This document shows, piece by piece, positions 3,112 to 15,964 of a DNA stretch of 64,000 nt. The position numbers and the translations under genes are program-made. Every line of letters begins with the position of its first letter. Within the stretch, counting starts at the first letter, position 1. The notes under the pieces are model-generated. The model ran no database searches. It had not been told where the DNA came from and was given only the letters and a program-made list of their open reading frames with translations. The DNA is from an uncultured Nitrospiraceae bacterium (GTDB lineage Bacteria > Nitrospirota > Thermodesulfovibrionia > Thermodesulfovibrionales > SM23-35): NCBI GenBank assembly GCA_963727775.1, contig CAVSHB010000001.1:512001-576000 (forward strand), written 5' to 3'.

Positions 3112-4359
3112 ATGAAATTTGATATTGCTCCTTATCTTCAGGTATTCCGCAGCCGCAGAATTGCAGTTATAACTTTCCTCGGATTTTCCTCCGGCCTGCC
3201 TTTTGCATTGACCGGTGGCACTTTACAGGCATGGATGGCTGTATCAGGCATAAATTTGCATACTATCGGCATATTCACCCTGGTAGGATTACCATATGCA
3301 TTGAAATTCTTCTGGTCGCCTTTGATGGACCGGTTTGTCCCCCCATGGCTCGGAAGGCGAAGGGGGTGGATAATTATAACCCAGCTCAGCCTCGTCGCGG
3401 GAATTACAGCTATGGCTTTTAGCTCTCCACATAATGCGCTTCCTTTTTTAGCAGGGCTTGCACTAATGGTTGCTTTTACCTCGGCCTCTCAAGATATTGT
3501 GGTTGATGCATACCGTACCGATGTCTTGGCTGAACAGGAGCGCGGGGTCGGGGCAGCCGTGTTTGTTATGGGGTATCGCATAGCGCTGCTTGTTTCCGGC
3601 GCATTGGCCCTTATCCTGTCTGATCATATAGGATGGCGAAATACCTATCTGTTAATGGCCGGCGTTATGGGGATAGGGATAATCTCGACTATCTTAGGCC
3701 CCGAGCCTGATGGAAAAATCATTCCGCCAAAAAGCATGAAAGAAGCAATATGGGGCCCCATGAAAGATTATTTTTCAAGAACATCCGCCCTGCCGCTCTT
3801 ATTGGTAATAGTCCTTTATAAACTGGGGGATGCATATGCGAGCGCCTTGACTACGCCGTTTCTAATCAAAGGGTTGGGCTTTTCCGCCGGTGAAGTAGGC
3901 GCTATAAATAAAGGGCTCGGCTTTGCATCGCTGATTGTGGGTGCAATGTTCGGCGGCACTTTGATGGTCAAGCTCAGGCTTTTCCGGTCTCTAATGGTAT
4001 TTGGAATCCTCCAAGCAATATCCATCCTTTCATTTATGGCCCTCGCATGGACAGGAAAAAATTACGGGATGCTGATCTTTGCAGTGGCCTTCGAAAACAT
4101 GGCGGGCGGCATGGGGACCGCGGCCTTTGTCTCACTTCTCATGGCAATGTGTAACCATCGTTATACTGCGACACAATACGCCTTCTTGTCGTCACTCGCC
4201 GCCCTCGGCAGGATTTTTATCTCTCCAACATCCGGGTTTCTTGTTGAGTCCATAGGCTGGGCCGGTTTCTTTTTCGTGACCTTTCTTACGGCCCTTCCGG
4301 GATTGGGGCTTTTATGGTGGCTGAGGAATGTTATTTCGGATTTGGGAAGCGCGGCCTGA
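3112..4359 (+). CDS. ampG: AmpG family muropeptide MFS transporter
   Basis: LGFSSGLP, LKFFWSPLMD, SASQDIVVDAYR and YTATQYA motifs; TGcTATAAT upstream at 3070-3078. Confidence 0.93.
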   Translation: MKFDIAPYLQVFRSRRIAVITFLGFSSGLPFALTGGTLQAWMAVSGINLHTIGIFTLVGLPYALKFFWSPLMDRFVPPWLGRRRGWIIITQLSLVAGITAMAFSSPHNALPFLAGLALMVAFTSASQDIVVDAYRTDVLAEQERGVGAAVFVMGYRIALLVSGALALILSDHIGWRNTYLLMAGVMGIGIISTILGPEPDGKIIPPKSMKEAIWGPMKDYFSRTSALPLLLVIVLYKLGDAYASALTTPFLIKGLGFSAGEVGAINKGLGFASLIVGAMFGGTLMVKLRLFRSLMVFGILQAISILSFMALAWTGKNYGMLIFAVAFENMAGGMGTAAFVSLLMAMCNHRYTATQYAFLSSLAALGRIFISPTSGFLVESIGWAGFFFVTFLTALPGLGLLWWLRNVISDLGSAA

Positions 4360-5074
4360 ATACGATAATGCCTGGTTTATTGACTATATAGCTTATAAAA
4401 TCCTGGTCGACCACTTTACGTATTTCTTTGCGGGACGAAGCATGTCTGAGATAAACAGTATTTGCAGCTTTGATTATTATTCCGACATGCGAAACATCCA
4501 ATCCTTTCAGGCCGGAATATATCCCGATATAATCACCAGTCATCAGTTTCTCTAAGATTGGGCTGGCGACTGCAACTGACGGTATGTATTTAATTTCTTT
4601 CCGTACAGTAGGAATACCGGGCAGAAAATATCCCCCATCTTCTTTCTCGTTGACAATTTTTTGCGTACTTATTGTATTTTCTCCGCCAATGTCAGCTGTA
4701 ACATCAGCAATAAATTCCGCATTAAATTCTTTCCAGTCCGTAAAGAAATGGTTTCTGCTCATAAAGTCAACGATGCCGGACCTGTACCTGATTATTTTCA
4801 CATTAGATTCGAAGCCGGAGTAAGAACTTGAAAGTCTCATAGCTTCCACATATTCGACTAAGGTCAAGCAATCCACCCCTTCGAGATTTACAACAAAAAC
4901 CTCCGGCGTATTCTTGTCACCGATTAATGTTGATTCGGCATAATCTATTCCGAGGAATTGCCTGGACAAAAAATCTATTCGTTCTCCGATGTCACGCATT
5001 TTCGAGCCATTGCTTATTAGATGTTCCAGCTGTTCCCGGTAAAATTTGCCCAAAATAATTTGGCTACAGTGCAT
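4331..5074 (-). CDS. DUF1460 / AmiA-type N-acetylmuramoyl-L-alanine amidase (NlpC/P60 fold)
   Basis: VDCLTLVEYV, RNHFFTDW, GLDVSHVGI and LRHASS motifs; context next to ampG and nagA. Confidence 0.85.
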   Translation of the reverse strand: MHCSQIILGKFYREQLEHLISNGSKMRDIGERIDFLSRQFLGIDYAESTLIGDKNTPEVFVVNLEGVDCLTLVEYVEAMRLSSSYSGFESNVKIIRYRSGIVDFMSRNHFFTDWKEFNAEFIADVTADIGGENTISTQKIVNEKEDGGYFLPGIPTVRKEIKYIPSVAVASPILEKLMTGDYIGIYSGLKGLDVSHVGIIIKAANTVYLRHASSRKEIRKVVDQDFISYIVNKPGIIVFRPRFPNPK

Positions 5075-5118
5075 AGTCAATTATAATAAACTTACGCCGC
5101 TTAATAAAATTTGTGGGC

Positions 5119-5225
5119 GCCGACAGATACAGTATTTGCGCTCATTCTCGTCCGCCGCAGCGGACTCCGAGATAAATTCTTTCTTTGAAAGAATTTAAAA
5201 CCGCGCAAATACGGTATCTGTCGGC
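5119..5225 (-). repeat. Structured palindromic element, copy 1
   Basis: 23-nt outer IR with one mismatch enclosing hairpins TCCGC/GCGGA and AAATTCTTTC/GAAAGAATTT; shares CGCTCATTCTCG and CTCCGAG with copy 2. Confidence 0.8.
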
Positions 5226-5297
5226 AATTTTAATCGTGCAAATTAACTGGAAATAATTCTTTAACCCCTGAAAGTCTATATTATCTACAAAATGTGG

Positions 5298-5427
5298 TTG
5301 CAGCGGGGACGGCGTATTCGAGCGGATTCTTTTACCGATAGTCGAAGATATATTAAAAATAAGGAGGTAAAAGCCTCGGAGGTCGGAATGACCGAGAATG
5401 AGCGAGTGTACTCTGTCCCCGGTGCAA
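5298..5427 (+). repeat. Structured palindromic element, copy 2 (opposite orientation)
   Basis: Outer IR TTGCAGCGGGGAC/GTCCCCGGTGCAA, inner stems CTTTTACC/GGTAAAAG and GTC/GAC, and conserved CTCGGAG and CGAGAATGAGCG. Confidence 0.75.
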
Positions 5428-5449
5428 TGCCTGTGCTATCATAGCAATA

Positions 5450-6337
5450 ATGAAAATTATAGATATTCATACCCACGGGATAGGCGGCTATGACACACGG
5501 ACAACAGACGTGGACCAACTCCTCAAAATAGCCGAGATCCACGGTTCATATGGGGTATCTGAAATCCTGCTGTCCATATACTCCGCTACCATCAGAGTAA
5601 TGAGGGAGAATATGGGGATCGTCAAAAGGGGAATGGAAATCCAGGCTGTATTTGTGAACCGGCATAATGAACCTGAAACTCAGAATCCATCTTCAAAAAT
5701 AATCGGCGTTCACCTCGAAGGCCCTTTCCTGAACCCTGCAAAATGCGGCGCTATGAATGCGATAACATTTATCGAACCGGCAGAATCAAGATTTCAGGAA
5801 CTGATAGAGGGTTTTGAAAGTATTGTTAAGATAATTACTATTGCGCCAGAGATGAAGGGCGCCGTCGGGCTGATCAAAAAAATCTCCGATATGGGGATTA
5901 CTGTCAGCCTGGGACATTCCGACGCAACTTATGATGAAGCAGAAGCCGGCTTTCATGCGGGCGCAAAAGGCATTACACATCTCTTCAATGCGATGCGTGG
6001 TTTCCACCACAGGGAGCCCGGTATTGCCGGGTTCGGACTATTAAACCGGGATATCTACATTGAAATCGTTGCCGATCCCTATCATTTGCATGAAGAAACT
6101 CTTGAACTGGTATTTAAAGCAAAGGACCATAAGAAAATAATTATAGTCTCCGATACGGGGAAAGAGAGCAAGACCTTCCTGGAGGAGCGGGGCGTCATTG
6201 GTGCACATGGTAAACTTCTTGGAGGAAGTATGACAATCCCTGAATCGGCACAAATGTTAATTCAGAAGGGATATGATCGAAATGTTGTAATGGATTGTAT
6301 AACGAAAAATCCAGAAAAATATATCCGGAGGTGTTAG
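5450..6337 (+). CDS. nagA: N-acetylglucosamine-6-phosphate deacetylase (compact form)
   Basis: DIHTHG, GVHLEGPFL, SLGHSDA and THLFNAM motifs. Confidence 0.9.
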   Translation: MKIIDIHTHGIGGYDTRTTDVDQLLKIAEIHGSYGVSEILLSIYSATIRVMRENMGIVKRGMEIQAVFVNRHNEPETQNPSSKIIGVHLEGPFLNPAKCGAMNAITFIEPAESRFQELIEGFESIVKIITIAPEMKGAVGLIKKISDMGITVSLGHSDATYDEAEAGFHAGAKGITHLFNAMRGFHHREPGIAGFGLLNRDIYIEIVADPYHLHEETLELVFKAKDHKKIIIVSDTGKESKTFLEERGVIGAHGKLLGGSMTIPESAQMLIQKGYDRNVVMDCITKNPEKYIRRC

Positions 6338-6745: not shown

Positions 6746-7225
6746 ATGTGGTATGTGGTATACACAAAACCGAGGCAGGAAGATTCAGTTGCCTCATTGC
6801 TTCAAAGCATCGGGATTGAGGTCCTTAACCCGAAACTCAAGTCAAAGAAGTATAAACGTAACAGAATTTTTGAGGTCATAGAACCTTTGTTCCCGTGTTA
6901 TATCTTCGCTAATTTCGAAAAAGAGAAATATTCCCATCTCATAACGTATACAAGGGGGGTAAGGTATATTGTCGGCAAAAGCAAGCCTATTACAGTGCAT
7001 GACGAAATTATCGACGCTATAAAGGAAGGAATGGAAGGCAATCTTGTTATTGTTAAGTCCCGGCGGTTTATGAGTGGTGATAAAGTTATCATAAAAGACG
7101 GGCCTTTTAAAGAGTTTTATGGGATTTTTGAACGGGAGATTAAAGGCGTTGAAAGGGTAATGATTTTCCTTAATACAATTCAATGCAGACTCGAACTCGA
7201 TAGCTATTTTCTGGCTGCGGCATGA
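6746..7225 (+). CDS. rfaH: RfaH-like NusG-paralogue transcription antiterminator
   Basis: WYVVYTKPRQE, PLFPCYIF, TRGVRYIV and KOW-like GDKVIIKDGPF; heads the polysaccharide locus. Confidence 0.85.
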   Translation: MWYVVYTKPRQEDSVASLLQSIGIEVLNPKLKSKKYKRNRIFEVIEPLFPCYIFANFEKEKYSHLITYTRGVRYIVGKSKPITVHDEIIDAIKEGMEGNLVIVKSRRFMSGDKVIIKDGPFKEFYGIFEREIKGVERVMIFLNTIQCRLELDSYFLAAA

Positions 7226-7351
7226 AGGTAAAGTAAAGCAAGTGAAGATAAATAAGGAATTTGCTCTTCTGTTTCAGTGATTGTAATTGGTTCGTCCCTT
7301 GTATAACAGACTGAAAGCTTTTTTAAGAACATGCCCCAAAAGGACATGAAT

Positions 7352-7363
7352 GGCGGTAGCCTG
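7352..7363 (+). promoter_or_regulatory. ops element (RfaH loading site)
   Basis: GGCGGTAGCCTG matches GGCGGTAGnnTG and lies in the leader between the rfaH-like gene and rmlA. Confidence 0.85.
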
Positions 7364-7447
7364 TCTTGAAAATGTACATGGAGCGGTTTTGCGCTAAATA
7401 CTAACCTGTGGAAACCATTGTACCAAATGAATTAAAATAGGCGTGTT

Positions 7448-8320
7448 ATGAAAGGGATAATATTAGCAGGAGGCAGCGGAACAAGGCTTTATCCGGTTAC
7501 AAAGGGGATTTGTAAACAGTTGCTGCCCATTTACGATAAGCCCATGATTTATTACCCACTGTCTGTCCTGATGCTGTCGGGTATTAAAGACATACTGATC
7601 ATTTCTACCCAGCAGGATCTGCCCCGCTTTGTCAATATATTCGGTGACGGCTCTCATTTAGGACTGAGGTTTTCGTATAAGGAACAGCTCCATCCCGGAG
7701 GCATCGCAGAAGCCTTTATTTTGGGTGAAGAATTTATTGGCGGGGGCAACGTCTGTCTTGTCCTGGGTGACAATATTTTCTACGGGCATGGGCTTACAGG
7801 GATGCTGAAGAAGGCAATGAGCGACGTGGAAGCGAAAGGGGGGGCCACAATATTCGGCTATTACGTGAATGACTCAGAAAGGTACGGAGTTGTAGAGTTC
7901 GACGCGAAAGGTACCGTCCTGTCAATTGAGGAAAAACCTAAAGACCCTAAATCAAAGTATGCTGTAACAGGGTTATATTTCTATGACAATGAGGTTATAG
8001 AAATTTCAAAAACTATAAAGCCGTCACGAAGAGGCGAGCTTGAGATTACCGATGTTAACAAGGAATATTTGAAACAAAAAAAACTCAGGGCTGAATTGAT
8101 GGGCAGGGGATATGCCTGGCTTGATACGGGGACCCATGAAAGTCTTTTGGAGGCCGGGGAATTTATAGCAACAATAGAGAGGAGGCAGGGCTTGAAAATA
8201 GCCTGCGTGGAAGAAATCGCTTATAAATTAGGCTATATTGACAAGGACCAACTGTCAAGACTTGCCCAGCATTTGAACCATAATGAATACGGGAAATACC
8301 TATTGAGGCTTATAAAATAG
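7448..8320 (+). CDS. rmlA: Glucose-1-phosphate thymidylyltransferase
   Basis: [30 protein letters not shown] and WLDTGT motifs. Confidence 0.97.
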
Positions 8321-8368
8321 CCTGAATGCTTTTTGCAATCTCCATCATCTGCATTAATTTAGAGAACG

Positions 8369-8968
8369 ATGCCTTTTCATTTTAAGAATCTCGAAATTCC
8401 CGAGATTATCCTTATTGATCCCAGGATATTCAGGGATGAAAGAGGGTTTTTTATGGAGATGTACAAGCATTCGGAGTTTGCCCGCAACGGAATTGAAGAA
8501 CATTTTGTCCAGGATAATTATTCGAGGTCTTTATGCGGGGTATTGAGAGGGTTGCATTATCAGAAGAATCCGAACGCTCAGGGTAAGTTAGTCCAGTGCG
8601 TAAAAGGCAAAATCTTTGATGTGGCGGTAGATATAAGGAAAAGTTCCCCTACTTATGGGCGATGGGCTGGAGTTGAGTTGTCTGAAGATAACAGGCTTAT
8701 GCTCTATGTGCCTCCTGCATTTGCGCATGGTTTTGTTGTGCTGAGCGAATCAGCCGATATAATGTATAAGTGCACGAGAGAGTATTCACCCGCGGACGAC
8801 AGGGGTATTATCTGGAATGATCCCGATATTAATATAAAGTGGCCGGTCAGCAGCCCTGTTCTTTCTGAGAAGGACGGAGGCCATCCGGCATTGAAGGACG
8901 CCGAGAATAATTTCGAATACCTATCTGTATCCCCCCTTGCCAAGCGCGGAATTAAAGGGTGGGCATGA
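8369..8968 (+). CDS. rmlC: dTDP-4-dehydrorhamnose 3,5-epimerase
   Basis: DERGFF, VLRGLHYQ and FAHGF motifs. Confidence 0.96.
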   Translation: MPFHFKNLEIPEIILIDPRIFRDERGFFMEMYKHSEFARNGIEEHFVQDNYSRSLCGVLRGLHYQKNPNAQGKLVQCVKGKIFDVAVDIRKSSPTYGRWAGVELSEDNRLMLYVPPAFAHGFVVLSESADIMYKCTREYSPADDRGIIWNDPDINIKWPVSSPVLSEKDGGHPALKDAENNFEYLSVSPLAKRGIKGWA

Positions 8969-8974
8969 ATTGAA

Positions 8975-9832
8975 ATGAAAATTCTGATTACCGGTGCAAA
9001 CGGACAGCTCGCCGGAGAGTTTAGGCGAGCGTTAGAAGAACGCAAACATGAGGTGGCTGCCTTTGATAAGAACAGCGTCGACATATCTGATCTGCGCAGC
9101 GTCACAGAGATTGTCGAACAATATAAGCCTGAAATTATTTTAAACTGCGCTGCATATAATTATGTGGATAGGGCTGAAGAGGATTTTGAGACCGCATATA
9201 GTGTGAACGCAACAGGGGTAAAAAACCTGTCCACTGTATGCAAAGAGAATGATGTCCTTTTGGTACATTACAGCAGCGATTACGTGTTTGACGGGAAAAA
9301 GGAGGATTTTTATACCGAGGAGGATGAGCCGAATCCGATTAACCGCTATGGAGAAAGCAAATTGGCCGGTGAAAAATTTTTACAGGCAGAGTCGGATAAT
9401 TTTTTGCTGTTCAGAGTGAGCTGGGTTTTTGGTGAAGGCAAACAGAATTTCCTTTATAAGTTGTTGGAGTGGGCAAAAAAGAACAAGGTGTTGAAAGTCG
9501 TTTCCGACCAGATAGCTGTCCCGACTTTTACTAAGGATATTGTGAATTTGACGATGTTTGCGATAGACAAAGGATTGAGAGGGGTTTACCATCTTACAAA
9601 CAGCGGATACGCTTCAAGGTATGAAGTGGCCCGATTTTTTATCGAAAGGCTCGGCATGGATGTCCTGATATTGCCTGTGAGTTCGGATTATTTCCCTTCA
9701 CCTGCCAAAAGGCCGTACTTTTCCGCGATGTCCAGTTTCAAGCTTTCAAATGACTTGAATGTGAGTGTTCCCGACTGGAAATTCGGCATCGAGAGATATG
9801 TAGAAACAATGTTTGAGACAATGGAGATCTGA
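8975..9832 (+). CDS. rmlD: dTDP-4-dehydrorhamnose reductase
   Basis: GANGQL, SSDYVFDG and YGESKLAGE motifs. Confidence 0.96.
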   Translation: MKILITGANGQLAGEFRRALEERKHEVAAFDKNSVDISDLRSVTEIVEQYKPEIILNCAAYNYVDRAEEDFETAYSVNATGVKNLSTVCKENDVLLVHYSSDYVFDGKKEDFYTEEDEPNPINRYGESKLAGEKFLQAESDNFLLFRVSWVFGEGKQNFLYKLLEWAKKNKVLKVVSDQIAVPTFTKDIVNLTMFAIDKGLRGVYHLTNSGYASRYEVARFFIERLGMDVLILPVSSDYFPSPAKRPYFSAMSSFKLSNDLNVSVPDWKFGIERYVETMFETMEI

Positions 9833-10791
9833 TGAAGCTTTTGGTAACAGGCGGCGCAGGGTTTATCGGGAGCGAGTTTGTAAGACAGGGGGTAAGCAAA
9901 GGTCACAGGATAACAGTTATCGATAAACTTAGTTATGCCGGTGATTTGGATAGACTGAAGGAAGTAGAAGGGAAAATCACTTTTTTAAATATAGATATAA
10001 CCGACGGCAAAGCTGTCGGAGATGTCTTCAGATCAGAGAGGCCCGATTCCATCGTGCACTGGGCGGCGGAAAGCCATGTTGACAGAAGCATAGCAGATGC
10101 CTCTCCTTTTATTGATACAAACATCAAAGGGACACAGGTCCTCCTCGACGCTGCAAAAAACTCCGGTATCGGAAAGTTTATTAATATTTCTACTGATGAG
10201 GTATACGGCGATCTTACAGAGGAAGGGCAGTTTTATGAAACAACACCTCTCAACCCCAGCTCTCCTTATTCTGTAAGCAAGGCGTCTGCCGATATGCTTG
10301 GAAGGGCATATTACAGGACATACGGCTTGCCTGTAATAACCGTCAGGCCGTCGAACAATTATGGCCCCTGGCAATATCCCGAGAAGCTGATCCCGGTGGT
10401 CATATTGAAAGCCCTGAAGAATGAAAAGGTGCCTGTTTATGCAAAAGGAGAGAACATAAGGGAGTGGCTGTTTGTCTCGGATTGCGCGGATGCGGTATTC
10501 GCAATACTCGAAAAAGGCAATGCCGGCGAGATTTATAATTTGGGAAGCGGTGAAGAAAAGAGGAATATAGATGTCGTTAAAACCATATTGCATATACTGG
10601 GGAAACCGGAAGATTTGATAGAATTCGTAAAAGACAGATTAGGGCATGACTTTAGATATTCCTTAAATTCGGATAAAATAAGCGGGCAGGTAGGCCGGAA
10701 AAAGAAAACACTTTTTCCCGAGGGCATAGAGAAGACGGTAGGATGGTATGTGGACCATATGGATTGGGTGACCAAGAAGCTTATTTCTTAA
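9832..10791 (+). CDS. rmlB: dTDP-glucose 4,6-dehydratase
   Basis: GGAGFIG, AAESHVDRSI, STDEVYG, YSVSK and EKLIP motifs. Confidence 0.96.
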   Translation: MKLLVTGGAGFIGSEFVRQGVSKGHRITVIDKLSYAGDLDRLKEVEGKITFLNIDITDGKAVGDVFRSERPDSIVHWAAESHVDRSIADASPFIDTNIKGTQVLLDAAKNSGIGKFINISTDEVYGDLTEEGQFYETTPLNPSSPYSVSKASADMLGRAYYRTYGLPVITVRPSNNYGPWQYPEKLIPVVILKALKNEKVPVYAKGENIREWLFVSDCADAVFAILEKGNAGEIYNLGSGEEKRNIDVVKTILHILGKPEDLIEFVKDRLGHDFRYSLNSDKISGQVGRKKKTLFPEGIEKTVGWYVDHMDWVTKKLIS

Positions 10792-10909
10792 CCCCGAATA
10801 ATGCAGATATTGTTCCAAAATTTATTTAAATTGATGAATACAGATTGTTCCTGGAAAAAAAGCTTGAAACAGCTATAAAAGAAAAGGAACAGGTTTGGGG
10901 AGGTCGATA

Positions 10910-12382
10910 ATGAAGGCACTTATTCTTGCCGGCGGTTCCGGAACAAGGCTTTGGCCCTTAAGCAGAAAGAACTATCCAAAGCAGTTTCTGAAGCTTAATA
11001 CTCAAAGGTCTTTGTTACAGGAGACCGCCGAAAGGCTCTTGAAAGTCGCCCCTGCTGAAAACATTATTGTGATGACGAACAACGAATACAAGTTCCATGT
11101 TTTGTCCGACCTGCGCGCACTCTCTCTCAGCCAGGCTCCTATAAATAACATAATCCTTGAGCCGGTGGCCAGAAATACGGCGCCGGCTATAGCTCTCGGC
11201 ATAAAGTACTGTATGGAAAAACTTGGGTCTGCTGAGAATGAAGTATTGTTCATTTCTCCTTCGGACCATATTATCAGACCCCCTGAAAGGTTTGTCGACT
11301 ATGTAAAACTCGCAGAGGAAATAGCCCAAAAGGGCCACATCGTGACATTCGGCATCAAACCGACAAGAGCCGAGACAGGGTATGGATATATCAAAGCAAG
11401 AAAACAGGCAATGGCTGACAGTAAGCAGGAAGGGACAAAGCTCCCTATAAAAAAGGGAGAGGGAGTATTTACAGGCGGGAATTTTTATGGAGAATACTTT
11501 AAAGCGGAAAAATTTATGGAAAAACCGGATGCAGAGACTGCTAAGCAGTATCTGCATGAGGGTAATTATTACTGGAACTCCGGTATGTTTGCCTTCAGCA
11601 TAGGGACTATGCTTGAAGAATTTGGAAGGCATGCGCCTGAGATCAGGAAGATGCTTGATATGAATTTTGACGACCTGTCCGCAAACTTCAGCGAGATGCC
11701 TGATATCTCCATAGACTACGCGGTAGCTGAAAAATCCGACAAGATAGTAATAATGCCCCTTGATGTATACTGGAATGATATCGGCTCATGGGACTCTCTC
11801 TACGAGGTCATTGACAAGGACGATTCAGGGAATATCAAGATGGGGGACACCATTACAATAGATACGAAGGACACCCTCATAATGAGCAATAAGAGGCTTA
11901 TTTCGACAATTGGGTTGGAGGACTGTCTCATTGTCGACACTGACGATGCGGTCCTCATCGCGAAGAAAGGGGAGACCCAAAAAGTCAGAGAAGTAGTGTG
12001 CAGGCTGAATAAAGAGAACCGGAAAGAGGCGACGGAACATCTTACAACATATCGCCCATGGGGCAGCTATTCCGTGCTTGAAGAAGGTGAACGGTATAAA
12101 ATCAAGAGGATCGTGGTAAATCCCGGGGAAAGGCTGAGCCTTCAGATGCACTATCACAGGTCGGAGCATTGGGTTGTTGTGAGAGGCGCCGCGAAAGTTA
12201 CAATCGGAGAAAAGGATATATATATCCATGAGAATGAATCTGCGTATGTCCCGAAATCAACTCATCACAGACTCGAAAATCCGGGCAAGGTACCGCTGGA
12301 AATAATTGAAGTTCAGAACGGCGAATATGTCGGTGAGGACGATATAGTGAGAATGGATGATAAGTACGGTAGAAATAAGTAA
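10910..12382 (+). CDS. manC: Mannose-1-phosphate guanylyltransferase / mannose-6-phosphate isomerase
   Basis: [29 protein letters not shown] and a cupin C-terminus (LSLQMHYHRSEHW); SD GGAGG before ATG 10910. Confidence 0.96.
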   Translation: MKALILAGGSGTRLWPLSRKNYPKQFLKLNTQRSLLQETAERLLKVAPAENIIVMTNNEYKFHVLSDLRALSLSQAPINNIILEPVARNTAPAIALGIKYCMEKLGSAENEVLFISPSDHIIRPPERFVDYVKLAEEIAQKGHIVTFGIKPTRAETGYGYIKARKQAMADSKQEGTKLPIKKGEGVFTGGNFYGEYFKAEKFMEKPDAETAKQYLHEGNYYWNSGMFAFSIGTMLEEFGRHAPEIRKMLDMNFDDLSANFSEMPDISIDYAVAEKSDKIVIMPLDVYWNDIGSWDSLYEVIDKDDSGNIKMGDTITIDTKDTLIMSNKRLISTIGLEDCLIVDTDDAVLIAKKGETQKVREVVCRLNKENRKEATEHLTTYRPWGSYSVLEEGERYKIKRIVVNPGERLSLQMHYHRSEHWVVVRGAAKVTIGEKDIYIHENESAYVPKSTHHRLENPGKVPLEIIEVQNGEYVGEDDIVRMDDKYGRNK

Positions 12383-12403
12383 AAAGGCAAGGAAGAGGTT
12401 GAT

Positions 12404-13561
12404 ATGAAAAAGGCTTTGATAACCGGCATCACAGGGCAGGACGGCTCTTACCTGACCGAATTGCTTTTGTCAAAAGGGTATGAAGTGCATGGGTTGGTCC
12501 GCCGGGCAAGTACATTCAACACCCACAGAATTGATCATCTGTACCAGGACCCGCACATACCGAATACAAGGCTTTTCCTGCAGTTTGGAGACTTGTCCGA
12601 TTCGGGACAATTGACCAATATTATTTACAACATCAAACCCGATGAAATCTATCACCTCGGGGCGCAGAGCCATGTCAGGGTCAGCTTTGACCTGCCGGAA
12701 TATACCGGGGATGTCACGGGGTTAGGCACGATAAGGATATTGGAGGCGGTCAGAAGGAGCGGGATCAAAACAAAGTTTTATCAGGCGTCGAGCAGCGAGA
12801 TGTTCGGGGCTGCCGGACCGCCCCAGAATGAAAAAACACCTTTTTGTCCGAGAAGCCCCTATGCTGCCGCGAAGGTTTATGCATACTGGATCACCGTGAA
12901 TTACAGGGAGGGTTATAAGCTTTTCAATTGCAACGGCATACTCTTCAACCACGAATCCCCCCGCAGGGGTGAGACGTTTGTTACGAGGAAGATTACAAGG
13001 GCAATTGCGAATATTACCGCAGGAAAGCAAAGGAGATTGTATCTCGGGAATCTCGACGCAAAGAGAGACTGGGGGTTCGCTCCTGAATATGTAGAGTGCC
13101 AGTGGCTGATACTCCAGCAGGATGAACCGGATGATTATGCGATCGGGACCGGCGAAAGCCATTCGGTAAGGGAATTTGTAGAAAAGGCGTTCAATTACGC
13201 GGGCATAGAGATAGAGTGGGTAGGCGAAGGGGCCGCCCAAAAAGGAAAAGTCCGTTCCCTGACTTCAAACTTGACCATCCCAACTTTAAAAACGGGAGAT
13301 ATTATCATCGAGATCGACCCGAAGTATTTCCGACCGACCGAGGTCGATTTCCTGCAGGCCGATATAAGCAAGGCAAGACAGAAACTCGGCTGGGAGCCAA
13401 GGACGACTTTCGATGAGCTTATTAAGATAATGGTCGACTATGACCTTAAACTGATAGGCCTGAAACCGGTCGGTGAAGGGATAGAAGCAAGCCTTAAAAA
13501 GGGTTTTACCTATACCAACCATGACTTTGCATTACATGAAAAAATACGTGAGAGATGCTGA
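12404..13561 (+). CDS. gmd: GDP-mannose 4,6-dehydratase
   Basis: [12 protein letters not shown] and [20 protein letters not shown] motifs. Confidence 0.97.
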
Positions 13562-13658
13562 TAAAGACTTGCAGCCCCTTCTCAACTCCTAAGGTAAAGG
13601 GAACGAAGGAGGGGTTATGCTTTAGAACCTTGTTACAGCGGGTAACGTTTATTTATAG

Positions 13659-14722
13659 ATGAGCAAGGATTCCAGGATATACATTGCAGGTCATCGGGGC
13701 CTTGTCGGCTCGGCAATCCTGAGAAAACTGCGTGGAATGGAATTCACGGACCTTGTAACAAGGACGAGCGGAGAGCTTGACCTCAGAAGGCAGAATGATA
13801 CGGAAAATTTCTTTGCAAAAGAAAAACCTGACTATGTCTTTCTTGCAGCTGCAAAGGTAGGAGGTATCCTTGCGAATGATACATACAGGGCCGAGTTTAT
13901 TTATAACAATATAATTATCGCAGCCAACGCAATACATTCTTCGTACACATGCGGAGTAAAAAAACTGCTTAATCTCGGTTCTTCATGCATATATCCAAAA
14001 CTCGCGCCTCAGCCGATGAAAGAGGAGTATTTATTGACCGGACCCCTGGAGCCTACCAACGAACCATATGCAATAGCCAAGATATCCGCCATAAAACTCT
14101 GCAGGTACTACAATGAGCAGTACGGCACTAATTTTATTTCAGTAATGCCTACAAACTTATACGGTCCTAATGACAACTTCAACCTTCAGACCTCACATGT
14201 GCTCCCTGCATTGATCAGGAAGATGCACCTGGGGAAATGTTTGCATGAAGGCGACTTCGATATGATTAGAAAAGATTTGATAAAATATCCGCCGGGCGGC
14301 TGTGACGTATCTCAGATGGCAAGGGCGGATATTACTGAATGTCTCGCGACGTATGGTATTAAGACCGATCATTCCTCACGCTCGACGGTAGTGAATCTAT
14401 GGGGCAGCGGGAAGCCGTACAGAGAGTTTTTGTATGTTGATGACCTTGCCGAGGCCTGTATTTTCCTTATGGAAAACTATGACGCCGGGTCAGGCGAATT
14501 CATAAACATCGGTACAGGAGAAGATTTGACGATCAAACAGCTTGCAGAATTAGTGAAGGAAATAGTCGGCTTCCTGGCCAAATACAATGGGACCCGACAA
14601 AACCCGATGGAACACCGAGAAAGCTCCTCGATGTTTCGAAACTGCAATCGCTCGGATGGCGGCCAAAGATATCTCTAAAAGAAGGGATAAGAAGAACATA
14701 CGAATGGTATGCCGCGAATTAG
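13659..14722 (+). CDS. fcl: GDP-L-fucose synthase, frameshifted near 14575
   Basis: [10 protein letters not shown] and LGSSCIYPK; the conserved tail [17 protein letters not shown]...YEWY is in another frame ending at TAG 14720-14722. Confidence 0.92.
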
Positions 14723-14790
14723 TCTAAGAAAACGTTCAATATTCTATGGTGGAGAAAAGAACAGTAAGAAAATAACCCGGAACATCGAAC

Positions 14791-14943
14791 ATGAATTATA
14801 AAGGTAAATTGAATTTAGAGGAATTGAAGAAAAGATACTGGAAATTGATCGTTTTATCCGGCGATAGGAACTGGGAGATCTGGCTGGCGGTTGCGGCAGC
14901 ACTGATCGTGGGTGTAATTATAATTTTGACGATATTACGTTAA
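14791..14943 (+). CDS. Small 50-aa single-pass membrane protein
   Basis: MNYKGKLNLEELKKRYWKLIVLSGDRNWEIWLAVAAALIVGVIIILTILR*: basic N-terminus and a hydrophobic C-terminal helix; no clear SD. Confidence 0.5.
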   Translation: MNYKGKLNLEELKKRYWKLIVLSGDRNWEIWLAVAAALIVGVIIILTILR

Positions 14944-15013
14944 ATGGTAGCAAAGCAACTATGGACCTATCAGAAATATTAAACTTGAGGCCGCTCATTA
15001 AGGAAAATAAAGC

Positions 15014-15964
15014 ATGAAGAATATATCAGGCAAGCGTATTCTCGTTACCGGGGGAGCAGGTTTTCTCGGTTCTCATCTTTGTGAACAACTGCTCAGTAAA
15101 GGGCATGAAGTTATCTGCGTGGATAATTTCTACACCGGGCGAAGGGCGAATATTGCCCATCTCATCAGGGACCCTTATTTTGAAGTATTGAGGCATGACA
15201 TTTGTTTCCCGTTATATGTAGAGGTCGACGAAATCTATAACCTTGCCTGTCCCGCTTCTCCGATTCATTACCAGTTCGATCCCGTGCAGACCACAAAGAC
15301 CTCTGTCCATGGAAGCATCAATATGCTCGGGCTTGCAAAACGGGTGAAAGCCAGGATATTGCAGGCGTCGACAAGTGAAGTATACGGAGACCCTTTGGTC
15401 CATCCGCAGACTGAAAATTACTGGGGCAATGTAAATCCCGTAGGCTTAAGATCATGCTACGATGAAGGAAAACGCTGTGCGGAGACACTATTCTTTGATT
15501 ATCACCGGCAGCACAAATTGCAGATAAAAGTCGCAAGAATTTTCAATACCTACGGCCCGAGGATGCATCCCAACGACGGGCGTGTCGTGAGCAATTTTAT
15601 AATGCAGGCGTTGAAAGGAGAAGATATAACCGTTTTCGGTGAAGGTAAACAGACGAGGAGTTTCTGCTATGTGGATGACTTGGTAGACGGCTTGATCAAA
15701 CTTATGAACAGCCCTGATGATTTTACCGGCCCTGTAAATTTAGGGAACCCCGTTGAATTCACTATACTTGAACTTGCCGGGAAGGTCATTAAAATGACAG
15801 GTTCCCGATCTCAAATAGTCTTTCAACCTCTCCCGCCCGATGACCCAACTCAGCGGCAGCCGGATATATCAACAGCAAAGAGCATCCTTAATTGGGAGCC
15901 AAAGATACAGCTGCAAAAAGGTTTAAAAAAGACCATTGATTATTTTCGAGTTCTTATAAAATGA
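15014..15964 (+). CDS. uxs: UDP-glucuronate decarboxylase (UDP-xylose synthase)
   Basis: LACPASP, YWGNVNP, CYDEGKR and DGRVVSNFI motifs. Confidence 0.94.

Follow-up and report, generated by a model that had tools for sequence, protein, structure and literature searches.

Two elements in the window, the whole 64,000-nucleotide stretch of DNA analysed here, are probably old copies of a gene-less dispersed repeat that occurs 73 times in this genome (G000; covariance-model count). Its intact members are IS1380-ended and were likely moved in trans, and the two copies would have landed independently, outside the mRNAs of both neighbouring genes. The new part is the junction core of the repeat, which is undescribed in the sources searched.

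The sequence-only reading had described two opposed copies with a common layout (outer stem, GCGGnTT, hairpin A, CTCGGAG, hairpin B, CGAGAATGAGCG, outer stem), and we found this layout in both (Table 1). Its junction words are common to the two copies, but the C of its 'CGTATT' and its 'TACT' sit in the variable outer stem; family-wide, only GCGG, CCTCGGAG and CGAGAATGAGCG are near-invariant. The outer stem of copy 1 is Watson-Crick at 13 of 14 pairs, and that of copy 2, also of 14 pairs, has 10 Watson-Crick and two G.T pairs. Compared with 200 shuffles, the folding z-scores were -9.9 on the motif strand and -10.0 on the other strand for copy 1, and -6.1 and -3.7 for copy 2. A model of 31 copies, both window copies included, matched the window only at copies 1 and 2. 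Neither has a terminal repeat over threshold: copy 1, a member of a shell-bearing subfamily, keeps by-eye remnants, and the recognisable terminal repeats of copy 2 are gone (end scores 1.4 and -2.4, under threshold), a right-hand repeat being present on copies resembling it in other organisms. Rfam gave no match (best 23.7 bits, gathering score 100), and 14 loci from other genomes gave 0 matches at E 0.5 with ribozyme families included.

Elsewhere in the window, an IS3-type element interrupts a caspase-domain (Peptidase_C14) gene (812-2007; matching copy at G000:C3, ~468,500-469,630), and at 6746-15964 a long rfb/gmd sugar-nucleotide cluster begins with a NusG-domain gene and is probably a polysaccharide operon carrying its own antiterminator.

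Table 1. Features of the two repeat copies and of the adjoining genes, in window positions.
Feature	Position	Strand	Remark
Copy 1, core and outer stem, main subfamily of this genome	5119..5225	-	model match 5119-5224, 72 bits
Copy 1 outer stem, 5' arm	5207..5225	-	partner is 5119-5137
Copy 1 junction word 1, GCGG invariant	5198..5206	-	
Copy 1 hairpin A, 11 bp, loop 3 nt	5174..5196	-	
Copy 1 junction word 2, CTCGGAG	5165..5172	-	
Copy 1 hairpin B	5150..5165	-	
Copy 1 junction word 3, CGAGAATGAGCG	5139..5150	-	
Copy 1 outer stem, 3' arm	5119..5137	-	
Copy 1 likely decayed left terminal inverted repeat, TTAA adjoining	5226..5246	-	by-eye match to intact subfamily copies; matrix score 1.4, threshold 4.4
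Copy 1 likely decayed right terminal inverted repeat	5092..5112	-	by-eye match; matrix score -6.0, under threshold
Copy 2, core and outer stem, long-hairpin-A subfamily	5299..5426	+	model match 5302-5424, 97 bits
Copy 2 junction word 1	5320..5328	+	
Copy 2 hairpin A, 8 bp, loop 29 nt	5329..5372	+	
Copy 2 junction word 2	5374..5381	+	
Copy 2 hairpin B	5381..5393	+	
Copy 2 junction word 3	5393..5404	+	
Extended -10-like box, predicted leaderless promoter, host feature	5434..5442	+	7 nt 5' of the nagA-like ATG
-10-like box, predicted leaderless promoter, host feature	5080..5085	-	5 nt 5' of the amidase ATG at 5074
AmiA-like N-acetylmuramoyl-L-alanine amidase gene, neighbour only	4331..5074	-	PF07313, E 5e-66
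NagA-like deacetylase gene, neighbour only	5450..6337	+	PF01979; TIGR00221 176 bits, under cut-off 226

The core folds on one strand into a three-way junction of 70-120 nt, in which words stay invariant and stems covary freely. A closing stem of about 20 bp and two hairpins, all free in sequence, surround a junction built from three invariant words, which supply two G-C pairs, tandem G.A positions and a CTC/GAG helix followed by a GGA bulge. In 31 diverse copies 93.7% of cells were paired, two-sided changes numbered 206 (shuffles, 62), and pairing fell to 34-49% when the partners were slid; in 39 stem representatives from 174 copies pairing was 90.8% against 53.8% with shuffled partners, and because the copies are related none of these figures is a probability. 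G.T exceeded A.C by 56:15 in the stem representatives, and ratios of 70:17 and 110:33, of 46:3 in G006 and of 24:7 in G073 were also obtained. The outer stem is consistent in length and ends at about 19-22 bp. Between phyla the stems and hairpins are wholly different, and about 26 junction bases are unchanged.

GNA triloops and tandem G.A pairs are specially stable in DNA. Among 205 distinct loops there were 11 GNA triloops, five GNRA loops and no UUCG loop. These sequences barely resolve whether the core would act as DNA or as RNA: a G.T excess would suit either, and the loop counts carry little weight. Outside the family of the window, a common GGAY-containing loop usually caps hairpins A and B (L034, L043, L051, L091, L097, L100, L106, L115, L138 and others); the loop also occurs in an unrelated two-hairpin repeat at L237, and a larger superfamily may exist.

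Mismatches to the majority were found at 18 of 799 positions in the core words and at 194 of 1,234 in the terminal repeats (the reference being one base off), in a comparison of 31 of the 34 copies that were found by shell sequence alone. The contrast was smaller for singletons, with 12 in 26 core columns and 31 in 40 terminal columns. G004 had no exact-pattern match, and in both of the copies read there the junction has decayed; retention by the host is thus not universal.

Besides the covariance-model count, a profile search (nhmmer) gave 79 non-overlapping matches in G000, 72 full and seven partial, and the exact two-word pattern occurred 59 times. By simple gene calls, 69 of the 72 copies overlap no called gene; the repeat is short, non-coding, multi-copy and intergenic, like a MITE. 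Eight close pairs were present, every one inverted and heterologous and six of them head-to-head, with a marginal clustering (3.8 expected, p 0.05). Since all eight are opposed, the head-to-head pair of the window is not special. A divergent partial match at G000:C3:68300-68417 has a variant third junction word and may belong to a sister family.

The intact copies are enclosed in a shell of about 158 bp, with 20-bp terminal inverted repeats like those of the four intact IS1380 elements of G000 (1.65 kb each; PF13701; NF033539 410 bits, cut-off 180) and a YTAR duplication. Using an end matrix made from the eight ends of these elements only, with a threshold of 4.4 (the 99th percentile of background), we found 40 left and 49 right ends above threshold among the 72 copies; 33 copies had both and 56 at least one. 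An exact 4-bp duplication flanked 12 of the 33 two-ended copies (shuffle mean 4.3; reached in 3 of 20,000 shuffles), and two of the four IS1380 elements themselves. The relative G056 contained 63 pattern matches, mostly of one young subfamily. From 30 loci taken there, 25 copies were readable, 21 of them with both ends, and 15 of these 21 were flanked by an exact duplication (5.6 on average in shuffles; reached in 0 of 20,000). Of 38 columns compared at the left end in G056, a stretch that continues into the outer stem, 32 agree with the IS1380 end. In the comparison of filled and empty sites, G004 is without the element at two sites that carry it in G056, the flanks, about 79% identical, being too diverged to place the junctions; contigs of relatives break at the copies, and the relatives of G073 are too distant.

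Terminal inverted repeats common with an autonomous IS and a target site duplication are MITE features, and we conclude with high confidence that the shell of the shell-bearing copies is an IS1380-type MITE. The IS1380 transposase of G000 likely mobilised the shell-bearing copies of that genome in trans. The core is absent from the intact IS1380 elements, so the repeat is not a simple internal deletion of one, and unlike the IS1380 family (NF033539, PF13701), with which it has the terminal 20 bp (to 38 columns in G056) and the 4-bp YTAR flank in common, it has no transposase of its own. Like the prokaryotic MITEs Correia, ERIC and QMITE2 in the accessible part of PMC10969869, which holds 0 occurrences of IS1380, the repeat is gene-less, about 160 bp long and intergenic, with a short target duplication, a stable stem-loop and terminal inverted repeats common with an IS of the same genome. 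It differs from them in an interior whose junction is conserved across phyla and shells with exchangeable stems, and in many copies without terminal repeats.

The MITE description does not extend to all core copies. Both IS1380 ends were found at 12 of 91 loci of the species-genome scan and in 0 of 30 G006 copies. A different stem, about 21-23 bp long, marks nearly every copy in G073, G226 and G006, where a shell was missing and direct repeats stayed at background level (20 G073 copies likewise had neither), and other conserved flanks occur in G075, G077 and G493. No IS1380 transposase was found in G056 (190 contigs), G073, G074, G077 or the single-contig G493; IS1380 therefore cannot explain the whole family. 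Close transposase homologues (at least 76% identity) were present in three of 40 relatives.

The three-word pattern occurred in 49 of 57 genomes of the family and in all 26 genera, with 0 matches of the reversed control. Model matches were found in at least 16 of 151 genomes of the phylum, 22 candidates being scored per genome. The species-genome scan gave at least 125 loci; among 126 pattern matches 95 passed the stem test, 25 failed, some of these being chance matches, and six were incomplete. By record labels the taxa include Planctomycetota, Gemmatimonadetes (Gemmatimonadota), Latescibacterota, Desulfobacterota, Saccharibacteria and Parcubacteria, with CPR among them, and five genomes of those taxa are multi-copy (100, 35, 9, 5 and 41 matches). 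Single matches on the tiny contigs L053 and L122 may be binning errors. The distribution is uneven: in the phylum of G075 the pattern was present in 10 of 301 genomes, and G073 had a burst of 101 matches with none in 60 relatives. Seven pattern matches on viral contigs included none with the full structure, and plasmids gave no match.

Searches by junction word and by topic found no description of the motif in the literature, the supplements of PMC11109978 and PMC11602168, which may list it, lying outside their coverage. It was not found in the accessible parts of PMC3733652, PMC11109978, PMC10969869, PMC9330008 and PMC11602168, and had no match in 12 of the 15 supplements of PMC2996986. One of the 250 mobile or repeat sequence candidates of PMC11109978, MRSC-65-2, is one long stem that carries a UYCCGG repeat. 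Such candidates are similarly multi-copy, multi-phylum and strongly covarying, with RNA or DNA function undecided; the single long stem sets MRSC-65-2 apart, this being the one candidate of the class compared.

The repeat is actively rearranged. The core is flipped within its shell in six G000 copies and one G056 copy, and hairpin inversions and mixed combinations of stems and hairpins occur among copies. At the pyrK-pyrD spacer the pattern gave a full core at six of 30 loci, and by eye a decayed or partial one at five more; the outer stems of these copies are related, the hairpins differ and either orientation occurs, and empty spacers are a few bases long. The pyrK-pyrD (L224-L253) and amidase-nagA (L195-L222) spacers also collect, in different genomes, several other palindromic families, of CGTC type and with C-run/G-run hairpins, which at some of these loci seem to replace part of the element.

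We also looked for a gene that accompanies the repeat. Of three sets of listed neighbours, 65 of 128, 32 of 80 and 57 of 130 went through Pfam or NCBIfam and gave housekeeping genes only, as did the top 40 clusters of 2,946 frames taken from 168 loci. A reverse transcriptase link was not supported: a copy lay at one of 21 RT loci, about 1.3 kb off, and six of 15 motif-bearing genomes had no RT match. The idea that target DNA was copied in inverted form to make the outer stem was rejected, the arms matching their own flanks at 7.77 and other flanks at 7.74; G predominates on the 5' side of the arms (21 of 22 and 29 of 29 informative copies), and the arms are more like one another than flanks are (0.45 vs 0.27). 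Insertion of the core into a hairpin at GCG was likewise rejected, with no empty hairpin and no core-less intact shell in G000. A link between CGTC repeats and GIY-YIG nucleases had 0 occurrences in the accessible part of PMC3733652.

The preferred reading, of a dispersed repeat with IS1380-type ends, has two tiers. The shell would move by DDE transposition in trans through the IS1380 transposase, and the core, since it is found in other phyla in other shells or in none, would be an older module captured by different transposon ends. The junction is probably kept because a single-stranded fold, most likely of DNA, is recognised during the element's own spread, and not for a regulatory job in the host. 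Stem variation and core flips may come partly from template switching between inverted arms. Several observations stand against this reading: the window copies have no above-threshold repeats, most copies elsewhere are without the IS1380 shell, five motif-rich genomes gave no IS1380 transposase, no clean pair of a filled and an empty site emerged, no enzyme for the core was found, DNA and RNA are barely told apart, and the singleton contrast is small.

MITE interiors normally drift freely. A more far-reaching reading, which we put forward only tentatively, takes the core as a self-contained mobile nucleic-acid module that spreads between phyla, reaches about 100 copies per genome without terminal repeats or duplications and is caught by several unrelated IS ends. 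Its invariant junction would then serve either catalysis, as the centre of a new ribozyme or natural DNA enzyme, or recognition by a mobilising enzyme of a kind not yet seen.

It is unlikely, judged from sequence comparison, that the core is a functional RNA, self-cleaving or nuclease-processed, that rides in MITE shells and acts when the motif strand is transcribed. The one-strand fold and the invariant, non-palindromic words kept across phyla with free stems would suit such an RNA. So would the strand bias: between co-directional genes of G000 the motif strand is antisense in 34 cases and sense in five (p 2e-6), a replication-strand effect being inseparable with the weak GC skew, and by crude gene calls the ratio is 12:2 in G006 and 12:2 in other Nitrospirota, against 5:8 in the young G056 burst, as if sense copies were costly and removed. 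However, any strong hairpin could produce this bias, which is missing outside Nitrospirota (5:7, crude gene calls). The failure to match Rfam, ribozyme families included, the few GNRA and missing UUCG loops and the decay of the G004 copies also speak against an RNA. Under the preferred reading, the strand bias may reflect a later loss of sense-oriented copies within transcripts, which would be likely over time.

Still less probable, in our view, is that the core is inert cargo, its constancy due to recent horizontal transfer and gene conversion and its covariation a by-product of palindrome correction. The rearrangements described above fit this, the singleton test is weak, and template switching homogenises the arms of inverted repeats and inverts spacers (PMC8604942, accessible part). 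But the junction bases stay constant where stems and hairpins are wholly different between phyla, the outer stem keeps its length and end point, and palindrome correction gives no one-strand excess of G.T over A.C such as we observed in every comparison above.

We consider it quite improbable that a dedicated, domesticated HUH transposase acts on the core as on a REP/REPIN-type substrate, with the IS1380 shell as a side branch. The repeat is, like REP, extragenic, palindromic and multi-copy, and persists long at some loci, one orthologous spacer (pyrK-pyrD, 11 of 30 loci full or partial) across genera; many copies lack a target duplication, and the close pairs of G000 resemble the REP dimers, which are inverted heterologous pairs in the accessible part of PMC3733652. 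However, its fold is branched and 110-150 nt long, no GTAG or CGTC tag is conserved at the stem ends, shell-bearing copies have target duplications, and the pair clustering is marginal. No motif-flanked RAYT was found: in five motif-rich genomes, two of them without a Y1_Tnp match, 0 of seven Y1_Tnp loci were flanked by the motif, and in G000 only two of eight such loci touch it, both IS200-like insertions into the right end of a copy.

These two insertions are near-identical and sit at the same point of the right terminal repeat (G000:C1:672605-672741 and G000:C3:134106-134234; L007, L012). G000 also has two RAYT-like Y1_Tnp genes (~290-310 aa; C3:395411-396355 and C2:791716-792573; L260, L261) with short inverted repeats of their own, unrelated to the element. 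A truncated HUH rolling-circle Rep-like gene (PF23343) at L256:1137-1583 (G000:C3) is cut by an IS3-type element, adjoins an intact repeat copy and a PIN/Phd toxin-antitoxin pair, and is probably a plasmid or phage remnant. As a partner of the repeat this HUH Rep was not reproduced: the motif was near two of 17 PF23343 loci, one being the original locus and the other a sub-threshold match, and the family occurred in none of five motif-rich genomes outside Nitrospirota.

The sequence-only reading had tied the elements to the amino-sugar genes. The covariation it saw and its REP/MITE-like option were borne out, as was its caution that -10-like hexamers lie between each copy and its ATG. With such a hexamer 5-7 nt before each ATG, the nagA-like and amidase genes are predicted to be leaderless, and the elements would lie upstream of both mRNAs. 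This type forms a class in G000, where 94 of 803 tested genes carry such a hexamer at that distance from the ATG and only two of the 94 also have a ribosome-binding word. A nagA-like match was present in 45 genomes of the family; 30 loci were taken, 29 of them outside G000, and none of the 29 had a core within 420 nt upstream of nagA, some loci ending sooner. The divergently adjacent amidase was kept at 18 of the 29, with gaps of -5 to 272 nt, and about 10 of these 18 have, by eye, a similar -10-like box just 5' of the start. Relatives about 94% identical appear to carry both copies, their contigs ending inside both, and a 240-bp deletion takes most of both copies in one contig 98% identical at nagA, a single and therefore weak case.

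The glmS ribozyme and other amino-sugar riboswitches resemble the repeat in their site near amino-sugar genes, at this one locus; the repeat differs in having no Rfam match and no conserved gene association. A role of the elements as amino-sugar riboswitches, or as cis-regulators of nagA and the amidase, has practically no probability left and is refuted on distribution, by the very test that the sequence-only reading had set, for although each copy points toward a peptidoglycan-recycling gene and the near relatives carry copies too, the genome-wide search and the tabulated flanking genes revealed 73 copies beside functionally unrelated genes, six head-to-head pairs at unrelated loci and no copy at the 29 other nagA loci, the predicted starts lie downstream of the elements, the motif strand is mostly antisense instead of sense in a 5' UTR, and one contig has lost most of both copies.

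At this locus, then, the outcome is an ordinary one under the preferred reading: two old repeat copies within a promoter gap, which likely landed independently between two predicted leaderless promoters. For the family, Nitrospirota, Desulfobacterota, Planctomycetota, Gemmatimonadota and CPR genomes agree at about 26 junction bases, while the stems change and the shell is swapped or missing. Something probably reads the junction, and its identity would explain the movement of the shell-less copies; given its small size, the element lends itself to direct assays of cleavage, structure probing and transposition.
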